64,000 nucleotides of DNA, taken from assembly GCF_000026545.1 (NCBI RefSeq), contig NC_011601.1; one strand, written 5' to 3'. Numbering within the stretch: position 1 is the stretch's first letter; each line of letters opens with the position of its first letter. The position numbers were made by a program, and so were the translations under genes. The stretch is from Escherichia coli O127:H6 str. E2348/69. GTDB taxonomy: Bacteria > Pseudomonadota > Gammaproteobacteria > Enterobacterales > Enterobacteriaceae. Of the stretch, positions 3,350 through 23,102 are shown in pieces. The notes beneath the pieces are model-generated. The model did not search any database and was not told the origin of the DNA. It saw only the letters and a program-made list of their open reading frames with translations.

Positions 3350-4270
3350 ATGCTTAATTACGTTATCAAACGCTTGCTGGGGTTGATTCCGACGCTGTTT
3401 ATCGTCTCGGTGCTGGTGTTTTTATTTGTCCATATGCTGCCCGGCGATCCGGCGCGATTGATTGCCGGGCTCGAAGCTGATGCGCAGGTTATAGAACTGG
3501 TGCGTCAGCAGCTGGGGTTGGATCAGCCGCTGTATCACCAGTTCTGGCACTATATCAGCAATGCTGTGCAGGGGGATTTTGGCCTGTCGATGGTGTCGCG
3601 TCGTCCGGTTGCTGATGAGATTGCCAGCCGCTTTATGCCAACGCTGTGGCTGACCATAACCAGTATGGTCTGGGCGGTGATATTTGGTATGGCGGCGGGA
3701 ATTATCGCCGCCGTCTGGCGTAACCGTTGGCCGGATCGATTGAGTATGACCATTGCGGTGTCGGGGATCTCGTTTCCGGCATTTGCTCTGGGGATGCTTT
3801 TAATTCAGGTATTCTCCGTTGAACTGGGCTGGCTGCCTACCGTGGGAGCAGACAGTTGGCAGCACTACATTTTACCCTCCCTGACGCTCGGCGCGGCAGT
3901 GGCCGCCGTGATGGCGCGCTTTACCCGCGCATCGTTTGTCGACGTTTTAAGCGAAGATTATATGCGTACCGCGAGGGCGAAAGGGGTGAGCGAAACCTGG
4001 GTTGTCCTCAAGCACGGGCTACGCAACGCGATGATCCCGGTAGTGACCATGATGGGCTTACAGTTTGGCTTTTTGCTCGGTGGTTCCATCGTGGTGGAGA
4101 AAGTTTTCAACTGGCCCGGACTTGGACGCTTACTCGTTGACTCCGTAGAAATGCGCGATTACCCGGTGATTCAGGCGGAAATTCTGCTTTTCTCGCTGGA
4201 ATTTATTCTTATCAACTTAGTGGTGGATGTGCTTTACGCCGCCATTAACCCGGCTATCAGGTACAAGTAA
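3350..4270 (+). CDS. gsiC: Glutathione ABC transporter permease
   Basis: 306-aa polytopic membrane protein of DppB/OppB type, immediately downstream of gsiB. Confidence 0.9.
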
Positions 4271-20344: not shown

Positions 20345-20370
20345 ATAAATTTCAGGCAACAAAAAACCCA
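20345..20370. repeat. attL core (26-bp direct repeat)
   Basis: Identical 26-mer found again at 54489..54514. Confidence 0.85.
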
Positions 20371-20445
20371 TTTATGTAAACGGGTTAATGAAAACAATAA
20401 CTTAGAGTAAAAACAATAAGTTGGGTTGGTGGTCAGTGGTGGTTA

Positions 20446-21498
20446 TTACGGGGTAATGCCAACCGCTGCCGCCACTTTGTCGCCACTTGGCAGCGTTGCC
20501 AGAGGATTGAAACGGAGCGCCGTTTCCAGATGATCCGGTGCCAGATGTGCGTAACGCATAGTCATTTTTATATCGTGGTGTCCGAGAATTTTTTGTAAAG
20601 CCAGAATGTTTCCACCCGACATCATGAAGTGCGCCGCAAACGTATGGCGCAGAACGTGTGTGGGTTGACCGCGAGGGAGCACGATAGACGTTTTTTCCAT
20701 CACGGATAAAAATTGAAAATAGCAGTCTGTGAAGAAATTGAACCCATCAAGCGCCATGATCTCTTCGTAAAGCTCTTTACTGATAGGGATGCTTCTGTTT
20801 TTCTTCCCCTTCGCTCTTACAAAGGTAATTCGGTATTTGGTCACCTGTGAGCGGGTAAGATTTACGTCTTCTCGCCAGCGTGCGCCTGTGCTTAAGCATA
20901 TCTTAACTACCAGTGCCAGAATTGGGTCCTGACGTTTGCAATCAGCTAGTAATTCAACAATCTGCTCATGGGTAAGCCATGCCATCTCTTTTTCTGCGAT
21001 GGTGAATTTTCGCATGTTCTCCAGTGGGTTCGGATACGACCATTCGCCCAGGCGGGATAGTTCGCTAAAAACACTACTTAGATAGCTTTGCTCCAGGTTA
21101 ATGGTGACCGGGCTTGCTCCTTTCTTCCATTTCTCACTGAAGTAGATCTCACCTGTCAGGCGTTTATCTCGATAGTGGGCAAACATTTTAGAGGTTAGAT
21201 CAGTTGCAAGGGGATTGCCCAGAGCGTCAACCATCAGCAGCAATTTGTCATAGACATGCTGCCCAGCAGTCAGAGATTTACCATGTAGTTTGAACCATAG
21301 CTCAACCACGTCTTTCAGTGTTCGACGATCCACTGATTCACCCAGCCAGGGCTTTGCTTCGGTTTCTTCCATCGTGTGACGCTCAAAAGCCAGTGCTTCG
21401 CCTTTGGTGGCGAATTGTTTACGCACACGACGCCCACTACGTCCGGCGGGGTAACATTCGCAAAGCCATTTTCCTGTGGTGAGTTTTCGTACTGCCAT
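20446..21498 (-). CDS. int: Tyrosine integrase, P2 Int-like
   Basis: 350 aa; similarity to P2 Int by eye; C-terminal catalytic region with RHTFA, HxxR and terminal Tyr motifs (LGHHDIKMTMRYAH). Confidence 0.9.
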   Translation of the reverse strand: MAVRKLTTGKWLCECYPAGRSGRRVRKQFATKGEALAFERHTMEETEAKPWLGESVDRRTLKDVVELWFKLHGKSLTAGQHVYDKLLLMVDALGNPLATDLTSKMFAHYRDKRLTGEIYFSEKWKKGASPVTINLEQSYLSSVFSELSRLGEWSYPNPLENMRKFTIAEKEMAWLTHEQIVELLADCKRQDPILALVVKICLSTGARWREDVNLTRSQVTKYRITFVRAKGKKNRSIPISKELYEEIMALDGFNFFTDCYFQFLSVMEKTSIVLPRGQPTHVLRHTFAAHFMMSGGNILALQKILGHHDIKMTMRYAHLAPDHLETALRFNPLATLPSGDKVAAAVGITP

Positions 21499-21504
21499 AA
21501 TAAA

Positions 21505-21553
21505 GCCCTCATATCAGAGGGCTAAATTTAACTGTATGTTTGACCAGTGGTCA
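21505..21553. promoter_or_regulatory. Hairpin plus perfect 15-bp palindrome between KAP-NTPase gene and int
   Basis: GCCCTC-atatca-GAGGGC hairpin (21505..21522), then TTGACCAgTGGTCAA palindrome (21539..21553) flanked by TGTATG repeats. Confidence 0.35.
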
Positions 21554-21584
21554 ATGTATGGTTTAGTTTATTCAAACAATGCTT

Positions 21585-23102
21585 TTAATCAAATGATGTG
21601 GCCAGTTCAATTAATTCAATGTAATTATGTAAGGCATAAAAAGATGTATTCAGACCATTCTCTATAAGGGCTCCTTGCAAATACTTTATAGCTGTATCAC
21701 CATCAATAGGGCCTTGTTGAGATATAATCATTAGTGAATTTTGCCCATTGTTTTTTATACTTGATTTAAGCATGTTTATATTATTAATAAAATACAATGC
21801 AACATCTAAGTAATTTATTAATGTTAAATTTATTTTGGGCTCAATCTGTGAGATGAATAATCTACTGCTCGCCGTTCTATAGATATAATTGACACCTATT
21901 CTTTGCTGATTTGTATCAAGATTTAATTCAAGGATGGCTTGAGAAACACCTTTTAAATTGGAGCTTTGCTTTATCGAATCAGTGAAACGTTGTGCTGCAT
22001 TTCTTCGACCAATTAGTCCATCTATAATTTGACGTTCCTTATCATATATAATCATTAGCGAAATTATAAAAATATAATCTACTTTCTTTTTGACTAAATC
22101 AGATTTAAGAATGTCTATTAACCTTTCAGTATTTCGGATTGAGTCTCTTAGATTTAACCCAAATGCTTCAAATACGTTGGAAATATTTATTGAAAAGTCT
22201 TCTAATGTTGCTGTTAGTGGGTGTGTTTTTGATGTGATATTTTCAAAATCGGTACCAATATAATCACCAACAACACCATTAATTAAATCTTTAAGCTCAG
22301 GTTGTTTTAAAGTAAATCTTCTATGAAAAAAACGGCCTAAATAGTCATTTGCGGAAAAATCATTACCGTAAACATTCTTGATTGAATGTTGTAATTGATC
22401 TGTGTCAGTAGCAATAATAAAGACAAAATTTTTAATATCGAATATATGTTTAACAATCTCTAAAAGAGAAATTGCATAATCTGGCCTGCATCTGTCTAAT
22501 TCATCTATAAAGATAAATATAGGACATGAAAAACTATTTTCATATGCCAACCTAGACCATAACGTTAGTTCTTTTTTTAATACCTTAATGCTCTTCAGTT
22601 TTTCCTGGTGTTCCTTCAGCATTATTAATGAGGCTTCTTTGGCTATATCACCTACGTTATCTACTCCTGCATAAGTCTTGATTAGGCCAGATATGATTTC
22701 AGGTAGAACACCTTTTGTAAAGCGTCCGATAGCATGGCCGCTTTGTATCAATCGAGCATCAAGTTTTCCTGCATATGTTTGCAATTGTTGTGACAAAGAA
22801 GAAAAAAGGGTTAAAAATGCATCATCAGAAAAGTCTTGCTTCCAGGCATCAATGTAAACGCATGGGTGTGCATCTTTTATTGAGTTATAAAATCTCTTTA
22901 TGAAAAAACTTTTACCAGCTCCCCATTCTGCATTAAGGTTGATTACCGTGTTGTTCTTTTGCCCCTTTTCCTTAAGATAAAAATATAGATATTCTGCATA
23001 GTGTCTCCGATTAAGTTTGTCTTTGGAAAGAATTTCCTCTTCGTCGTCTAATATAAAGGTAGTTTCTTCATCCCAGTTCCAATTACAATCACCACATTTC
23101 AC
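21585..23102 (-). CDS. KAP-family P-loop NTPase (cargo; candidate defence/abortive-infection protein)
   Basis: Walker A in NAEWGAGKSFF and Walker B in IFIFIDELDRCRPD, the spacing and context typical of KAP NTPases; AT-rich; not part of P2 or 186 core. Confidence 0.7.
   Translation of the reverse strand: MKCGDCNWNWDEETTFILDDEEEILSKDKLNRRHYAEYLYFYLKEKGQKNNTVINLNAEWGAGKSFFIKRFYNSIKDAHPCVYIDAWKQDFSDDAFLTLFSSLSQQLQTYAGKLDARLIQSGHAIGRFTKGVLPEIISGLIKTYAGVDNVGDIAKEASLIMLKEHQEKLKSIKVLKKELTLWSRLAYENSFSCPIFIFIDELDRCRPDYAISLLEIVKHIFDIKNFVFIIATDTDQLQHSIKNVYGNDFSANDYLGRFFHRRFTLKQPELKDLINGVVGDYIGTDFENITSKTHPLTATLEDFSINISNVFEAFGLNLRDSIRNTERLIDILKSDLVKKKVDYIFIISLMIIYDKERQIIDGLIGRRNAAQRFTDSIKQSSNLKGVSQAILELNLDTNQQRIGVNYIYRTASSRLFISQIEPKINLTLINYLDVALYFINNINMLKSSIKNNGQNSLMIISQQGPIDGDTAIKYLQGALIENGLNTSFYALHNYIELIELATSFD

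Follow-up and report, generated by a model that had tools for sequence, protein, structure and literature searches.

The 186-like prophage of Escherichia coli E2348/69 contains an 86-bp gap (21499–21584 of the window, by which we mean the whole 64,000-nucleotide stretch of DNA that was analyzed) between its integrase gene, int, and a KAP-family NTPase cargo gene. Taken together, the signals within this gap suggest that it is probably the int control region, in which a promoter containing a LexA box is combined with a probable CII site and with a terminator hairpin that would shield int from upstream transcription. In the minus-strand lysogenic order, cI is followed by a gene for a 307-aa CI-like protein, the KAP NTPase gene, the gap and int, and the orientation of the NTPase gene is such that its transcript would be predicted to run into the int control region. 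An earlier note on this DNA had pointed out a hairpin, a 15-bp palindrome and two TGTATG copies, all of which are present in the gap, and had proposed either an attenuator by which int would be uncoupled from lysogenic transcription or a protein-binding site that was co-opted at cargo insertion. The motifs described below, as well as their rarity, positions and conservation, were read directly from the sequence and from comparison with relatives. On the minus strand the conserved layout is ATGTATG, 12–13 variable bases, CATACAT, TTGAC(A/C/T), ACTG(G/T)-N8-ACAGT, (T)AAAwT, a hairpin, a T-run and ATG.

The probable int promoter and its LexA box

The consensus of the SOS box is TACTGTATATATATACAGTA, with ACTGK-N8-ACAGT or CTGT-N8-ACAG as its core. 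A position weight matrix for LexA was assembled from 22 E. coli SOS boxes, the training sites scoring 12.8–27.0 bits. Three outstanding matches were obtained in 64 kb, at 29960, 29975 and 21530–21549, and the next best reached 9.9 bits. The match in the gap, CACTGGTCAAACATACAGTT (21530–21549, minus-strand reading), is a palindromic CTG-N10-CAG sequence with an AT-rich centre that scored 18.1 bits and ranked second of ~64,000 positions, with 0.07 matches of at least 18.1 bits expected by chance. It contains the left TGTATG copy and the right arm of the palindrome. When the window was searched for ACTGK-N8-ACAGT, the only occurrences were in the gap and in the promoter of a DinI-domain (Tum-like) gene, compared to 0.07 expected.

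The other two matches, TACTGTAAATATAAACAGTG and CAGTGGTTATACATACAGCA, form overlapping tandem boxes (29960–29994; 24.0 bits at 29960 and 16.0 bits at 29975) that served as a positive control for the scan. They lie downstream of a replication gene and are followed by a 62-aa open reading frame (ORF) and an overlapping 101-aa ORF (together spanning 30021–30453), of which the latter, at 30148–30453, has a DinI domain (1e-22). This DinI-domain gene is the counterpart of the LexA-controlled tum gene of phage 186. Tum of 186 is one protein of ~146 aa, and the Tum-like gene of the E2348/69 prophage may be split or frameshifted. The second tandem box has 15 consecutive bases (TGGTTATACATACAG) in common with the int-proximal box found in the majority of relatives.

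A consensus promoter scan identified TTGACC-18-TAAATT around the LexA box (spacer of 17–18 nt). The box fills this spacer, and the whole would constitute a sigma-70 promoter of the recA type. The −35-like hexamer TTGACC (21549–21554, minus strand) coincides with the left arm of the palindrome and reads TTGACA in the majority of relatives, while the −10-like hexamer TAAATT occupies 21525–21530 on the same strand, with TTAAAT (21526–21531) as an alternative register. Transcription is predicted from position to start at 21517–21519 (minus strand), 7–8 nt past the −10 and 38 nt past the centre of the right half-site of the CII-type dyad described below, which is the geometry of pE (PMC6593788).

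An integrase of the E2348/69 type is encoded in 1,134 of 5,426 complete E. coli genomes. Similarity among these genomes spans int, the hairpin and the palindrome and ends at ~21557–21572 whatever lies beyond, indicating that the gap sequence belongs to int and predates any one cargo. In all 92 IMG/VR relatives a box of at least 14 bits ended 29–32 nt before the int ATG, and no such box was found elsewhere in 466 kb. The boxes of relatives were stronger, at 16–25 bits, and include CACTGGTTATACATACAGTA and TACTGTTTTTATATACAGTA. The TTGA of the −35 was invariant across variants, as were A2 and T6 of the −10 (TAAATT, AAAAAT, GAAAAT and ATAAAT), except in the rearranged locus L083. In this locus (IMGVR_UViG_2609459954_000004, ~3896–4009) the LexA box, −10 and hairpin are kept, and unrelated GC-rich sequence replaces the −35 and the whole dyad, as though a rearrangement or an insertion had its breakpoint within the control region.

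Similar boxes were present in more distant phages. The box upstream of int in Yersinia phage vB_YenM_31.17, the Int of which is 47% identical, scored 27.0 bits, and in Vibrio phage 10N.222.45.E8_PE002 (L089), whose int is related, a 26-bit box lies shortly before the likely int ATG. As annotated, the int coding sequence of the Vibrio phage includes this box and begins with a GTG at 1487. This start was probably placed too far upstream; an ATG at ~1401 gives an N-terminus that aligns with other integrases. In seven phages with other int–cI arrangements, the examined stretch contained no box of at least 12 bits. These were 186, RE-2010, ST15-OXA48phi14.1, Kp4848-2 and Kp4852-2, in which int abuts the repressor gene, YenM_06.16-2, in which the two are separated by a 69-nt gap, and phiO18P, which has an intervening gene. 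YenM_324, also with an intervening gene, gave a 15.5-bit match that lies within the repressor gene and not upstream of int.

The palindrome to which attention had originally been drawn, TTGACCAGTGGTCAA (21540–21554), is a perfect 7+1+7 repeat that consists of the −35 TTGACC and the left part of the LexA box in the minus-strand reading. It is a by-product in one allele, since symmetry arises only where the interior of the box reads GTCAA, through chance complementarity to the TTGAC of the −35. Likewise, the left TGTATG copy (21533–21538) is the ATACAG half of the LexA box, and the right copy (21555–21560) is the right half-site of the CII-type dyad. If the palindrome as such served as an operator that binds a dimeric protein (Int at an arm-type site, IHF or a different host factor) and came with the cargo, its perfect symmetry would be explained, as would the finding that all sampled relatives with this allele carried cargo at the locus (KAP, OLD-like nuclease and others). 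However, the majority allele, which includes all cargo-less relatives, has the asymmetric TTGACACTGGTTAT instead, and other alleles are asymmetric as well. As far as the palindrome itself is concerned, its absence from cargo-less relatives is an outcome that the earlier note had named as counting against its proposal. Moreover, the palindrome is present as a single copy in the window, where perfect 7+1+7 palindromes are close to the number expected by chance (6 seen, 3.6 expected), and the flanking sequence is older than any cargo. We consider an operator function of the palindrome itself very improbable. The proposal of a protein-binding site survives in another form, as the palindrome is overlapped by a conserved box for what would be a host factor, LexA, and adjoins the CII-type dyad.

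An integrase arm-type site was rejected because no TGTATG or palindrome-like repeat occurs near the att cores, with no TGTATG within several hundred bp of either core. The core is a 26-bp direct repeat, TAAATTTCAGGCAACAAAAAACCCAT, located at 20346–20371 and 54489–54514, and these copies bound the prophage. The attR-side arm contains two CGCCAT repeats at 54430 and 54441, 11 bp apart (span 54430–54446), that match the 186 arm-type consensus YAYCGCCAYTY. On the attL side there are two AAACAATAA repeats, 19 bp apart (20392–20419). Both sets of repeats are likely to be sites for Int or an accessory factor. A cI operator or other reiterated operator was also rejected. The only other palindrome copy within three mismatches was one weak match at 37586, nothing similar was found in the pR/pL region, and immunity type differs among relatives while the element is unchanged. 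For IHF there was only a near-miss to WATCAANNNNTTR, judged by eye, inside the cargo-specific 3' end of the KAP gene.

The CII-type dyad and the hairpin

Directly upstream of the −35, an inverted pair of 7-bp sequences extends over 21554–21579. In the minus-strand reading it consists of TTGTTTG (21579–21573), a 12-nt spacer and CATACAT (21560–21554). The CII operator at pE of 186 is ATGTTTG-N13-CAAACAT according to the GenBank annotation and sequence, such that each half-site of the window matches its 186 counterpart at six of seven positions; most relatives have ATGTATG and CATACAT. The prophage also has a pE-type CII site, TGTTTG-N13-CAAACA (25052–25076), at the start of cII, which agrees in position and in half-sites with the site annotated in 186. 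The cII gene itself (25051–25560; Pfam Phage_CP76, 1e-43) encodes a protein 72% identical to 186 CII, and the N-terminal region with the helix-turn-helix motif is nearly identical.

The pattern TGTWTG-N12–14-CAWACA was found in the 64 kb only at 21555–21578 and at pE (25052), compared to 0.03 occurrences expected, and in 80 relatives it was confined to the int-upstream and pE positions. The half-sites upstream of int are centred at about −38 and −57 from the predicted start. CII half-sites in 186 are centred at −38 and −58 (PMC6593788). The half-sites are kept although the spacers (at least 13) and the adjoining cargo ends are unrelated to one another, a persistence that is not explained by simple linkage to int, and the left half-site stands as a conserved island between unrelated sequences. 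In Yersinia phage vB_YenM_31.17 the int-proximal dyad has the exact pE-type core, TGTTTG-N13-CAAACA, and near-exact half-sites are present in L084. All eight phages with other int–cI arrangements that were checked lack a dyad upstream of int. A second LexA box at the position of the dyad was rejected because the spacing is wrong (ATG-N18-CAT).

The GC hairpin lies at the other end of the gap (21504–21523, minus strand). Its 5' arm, AGCCCTC (21523–21517), is separated by a 6-nt loop (21516–21511) from the 3' arm, GAGGGCT (21510–21504), giving a 7-bp stem with five G-C pairs. The stem is immediately followed by a T-run (21499–21504) that reads TTTATT here and TTTTTT in most relatives and that abuts the int ATG (21496–21498, minus strand, from the ORF list). 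The int Shine-Dalgarno sequence, GAGG(G), lies within the 3' arm, where GGAGG or GAGGG is conserved. The predicted folding energy was −14.7 kcal/mol in 41 nt (z = −4.0), and none of 200 shuffled sequences was equally stable. This hairpin was the top terminator-like match on the minus (int) strand of the window and the sole such structure between the KAP gene and int. Thus, of the two structures noted earlier, the hairpin stands out from chance, whereas the palindrome is neither unusual nor conserved.

The stem is kept in all 20 unique variants, and two of its pairs show compensatory changes. At pair 7, 8 variants have A-T and 11 have T-A, while at pair 5 the C-G is replaced by T-A in L084. G-U substitutions occur at two further pairs, and no more than two cells were unpaired. 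Stem pairs were counted by script, since the MAFFT alignment put the 3' arm out of register. With a GC-rich stem-loop directly followed by a U-run, and with pairing maintained through evolution, the hairpin has the expected features of an intrinsic terminator.

The position of the hairpin relative to the promoter bears on which transcripts could form it. The 5' arm (21523–21517) is the interval from the −10 hexamer to the predicted start (21517–21519), so only read-through RNA would fold the hairpin. In the folding predictions, RNA beginning at the predicted int start gave no hairpin (−4.3 kcal/mol, z = +0.26), while the hairpin folded in read-through RNA from the cI–cargo operon (−14.7 to −23.8 kcal/mol). 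This arrangement fits an insulator that would terminate or silence foreign read-through and spare the local transcript. The suggestion of an attenuator that uncouples int agrees with these features of the hairpin, namely its terminator-like form on the int strand, the T-run against the ATG, the enclosed Shine-Dalgarno sequence and the compensatory pairing.

An alternative explanation is that the hairpin is a plain terminator of the cI–cargo operon, that the rest of the gap is functionless, and that int is expressed by leaky read-through, as in 186. In its favour, no other terminator-like structure lies between the KAP gene and int, int of 186 is co-transcribed with cI according to the annotation, and the palindrome is not beyond chance. 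What this explanation leaves unaccounted for is the constancy of CTG-N10-CAG, of TTGA, of A2 and T6 of the −10 and of the dyad half-sites beside unrelated cargo, the recurrence of the same signals in a Yersinia phage with so diverged an Int, and the restriction of the other LexA-like sites of the window to the region upstream of the DinI-domain gene. In addition, a terminator that buries the int ribosome-binding site would leave almost no int expression without a promoter. We judge it quite unlikely.

The ~70-nt conserved block ending in the hairpin could also be a small RNA, for example from the 3' untranslated region of the upstream operon. Termination of the block in a terminator-like hairpin would suit a small RNA, and an Rfam search matched RyhB (RF00057) at 21497–21565 on the minus strand with 26.1 bits (E 0.007–0.011). 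This score is far below the gathering score of 55, so a RyhB-like RNA was rejected. The match rests on a generic hairpin, the U-tail and a few short words and is probably due to chance, and relatives do not conserve the 5' stem of the model. As the pattern of conservation (dyad halves, −35, CTG/CAG and −10) suits DNA sites and not RNA pairing, a small RNA appears to be an extremely remote prospect.

Several points weigh against interpreting the gap as a control region with two inputs and an insulating hairpin. Of the sites in the weight matrix, that of recA alone was compared with actual sequence. The box of the window itself counted as the weakest allele (18 bits). The Int proteins of the relatives are 99% identical, such that the majority of the 92 loci cannot count as independent; true divergence is provided only by the allele classes and by the Yersinia and Vibrio phages, both of which lack the hairpin. 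The Yersinia phage has an AT-rich stem upstream of the dyad in place of the GC hairpin, and in the Vibrio phage the gene upstream of int is divergent. With respect to the dyad, the central base of the half-sites differs from pE in most E. coli and Klebsiella copies (TGTATG/CATACA compared to TGTTTG/CAAACA). The centre-to-centre spacing in the window and the majority of relatives is 19 bp (12-nt spacer) rather than the 20 bp of pE, a spacing that occurs in the Yersinia phage and in a small number of others. Shearwin and Egan reportedly found in 2000 that a 1-bp change in spacing strongly weakens CII binding. Furthermore, the −35 is near consensus, and an activator may not be needed. Finally, 186 is stated to have only one promoter that CII activates, pE (PMC7708051).

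The deviations in spacing and in both half-site centres, the good −35 and the Vibrio phage, which has the LexA box but no recognisable dyad, would all be accommodated if the promoter and LexA box were real and the dyad were bound by another dimeric protein or were a decayed remnant, leaving int responsive to the SOS system only. This alternative does not explain the exact pE-type N13 dyad of the Yersinia phage or the near-exact half-sites of L084, nor does it explain why the pattern occurs elsewhere only at pE, why its position matches −38/−58 and why the left half-site is a conserved island. We regard an int promoter with LexA as its only input as unlikely. Returning to the two-input promoter, CII binding at the int dyad would, on this evidence, have roughly even odds, and LexA control of int appears considerably more likely than CII binding.

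From these comparisons we infer binding by LexA and CII, the start site, termination and the following regulatory logic. In the lysogen, int would be repressed by LexA. DNA damage would induce int at the same time as the DinI-domain (Tum-like) gene, which is under LexA control as well, making Int available for excision. When lysogeny is established, CII would raise int transcription as lambda CII does at pI. RNA from the cI–cargo operon would contain both arms of the hairpin and would be terminated or untranslatable, and RNA from the int promoter, without the 5' arm, would be translated. More tentatively, one branch of the 186-like phages may have freed int from the repressor operon and placed it under a two-input promoter (LexA release at induction and CII at establishment), with a terminator and ribosome-binding-site mask that acts on read-through only. 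The resulting insulation may let the int–cI interval swap defence cargo freely, including KAP NTPases, an OLD-like nuclease and PARIS-like pairs. The branch would include phages of both E. coli and Klebsiella as well as Yersinia phage 31.17, and the Vibrio phage for the LexA part only.

The prophage and its cargo slot

The prophage is 34.2 kb in length and is inserted beside rcdA. Its int coding sequence (20446–21498, minus strand) specifies a 350-aa tyrosine recombinase (Pfam Int_N, 4e-32; Phage_integrase, 1e-20) that is 55% identical to 186 Int. The KAP-family NTPase gene (21585–23102, minus strand) is PDC-S20-like (Pfam KAP_NTPase, 9e-46; PADLOC PDC-S20, 5e-78). The cI gene (24102–24677, minus strand) encodes a normal 191-aa repressor. 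Between them is a second CI-like gene (23128–24051, minus strand) whose 307-aa product has two N-terminal Phage_CI_repr helix-turn-helix domains and a CI C-terminal domain. Genes for CI-family repressors are thus in tandem in this prophage, while in relatives such as L005 a long CI of 312 aa is the sole repressor and lies beside an OLD-like nuclease. In view of the tandem arrangement, the cargo of the E2348/69 prophage may include a second immunity specificity.

Among IMG/VR loci (L002–L005, L006–L106 and L109) and annotated genomes, the int–cI interval had at least ten different contents. The commonest is only a 63-aa ORF. Others are two further KAP NTPases, an OLD-like nuclease with a long CI, and several unknown inserts of 1–2.6 kb. 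The three KAP NTPases of the slot are only 28–31% identical to one another. In Yersinia phage vB_YenM_31.17 the slot holds an AAA_15/AAA_21 ATPase and a DUF4435 protein, a PARIS-like pair. The promoter, LexA box, dyad and hairpin occur in relatives without cargo and beside at least ten cargo contents, which gives no support to the idea that a binding site was taken over at cargo insertion. A 2026 preprint describes the integrase-to-primase region as a minor defence hotspot of P2.

Cargo was also found between int and the att site, at 585–1813 of L004 and 620–952 of L003, for example a Panacea-domain protein and a partner. The int–att side appears to be a second small hotspot. A scan of contigs with a degenerate pattern for the 5' end of int recovered three loci only, and a second IMG/VR scan with the Klebsiella integrase recovered mostly the same loci, with Int ~99% conserved.

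Comparison with known systems

No report of LexA-controlled int in P2/186-like phages was found in the searched literature, an absence there that is not proof of novelty. The components are ordinary and known; it is their arrangement that was not found in that literature for P2/186-like phages. The 186 model has Int made from the repressor transcript, LexA acting via Tum only and one CII target promoter. If the scheme proposed here is correct, a large and clinically common branch of prophages wires int differently, with Int silent in the lysogen, directly induced by damage and probably boosted by CII. It would also explain how defence genes between cI and int are swapped without breaking integration or excision. 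For annotation, the conserved stretch that borders this hotspot would be described as promoter and operator and not as an att-related site. The element is carried by a well-studied enteropathogenic E. coli (EPEC) strain, E2348/69.

The closest parallel in overall layout is the recA promoter, TTGATA|CTGTATGAGCATACAG|TATAAT, which we confirmed upstream of recA in 5,421 genomes and in which the assignment of elements is established. The recA promoter and the predicted int promoter have the −35, the 16-bp CTGT-N8-ACAG core and the −10 in the same order and with the same spacing, and recA-like layouts in relatives include TTGACA|CTGTATAAAAAAACAG|TATAAA and TTGACA|CTGGTTATACATACAG|TAAAAA. Unlike the recA promoter, the int promoter would drive a phage integrase, has an upstream dyad, and has a terminator hairpin that overlaps the stretch from the −10 to the start.

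Comparison with 186 itself shows both correspondences and departures. The cI and int genes of 186 overlap and leave no gap. The 186 p95 (tum) promoter, from which the LexA-repressed antirepressor gene is expressed, resembles the tandem boxes before the Tum-like gene of the E2348/69 prophage. To our knowledge, tum is the sole known LexA-controlled gene of 186. Whereas int of 186 is made from the cI transcript according to its annotation, int appears to belong to the SOS-controlled set here. Like the CII operator at 186 pE, the int site has 7-bp half-sites in inverted orientation that are separated by about two turns of the helix; those of pE are centred near −38 and −58, and those of int would have similar positions relative to the predicted start. 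A cII gene is present in the prophage. The int site differs in that it has a 12-nt spacer instead of 13 nt, TGTATG-type half-sites in most relatives, and a good −35. Lambda CII activates int transcription from pI; lambda pI would be a functional analogue, as the CII target would be int in both cases.

Other systems share one feature at a time. Guerin et al. reportedly found in 2009 that the integron integrase gene intI is under LexA control, coupling recombination to DNA damage. Like intI, int here would be a tyrosine recombinase gene controlled by LexA, but the recombinase lineage and the type of element are different, and intI has neither a CII-type dyad nor an embedded terminator. SOS regulation of superintegron integrases is also referred to in PMC3323433. 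Intrinsic terminators that act as operon insulators have in common with the int hairpin a GC-rich stem, a short loop, a T-run and compensatory pairing. Unlike the usual terminator, the int hairpin is positioned between the −10 and the ATG, with a 5' arm that, by prediction, lies outside the transcript of the local promoter and a 3' arm that constitutes the Shine-Dalgarno sequence.

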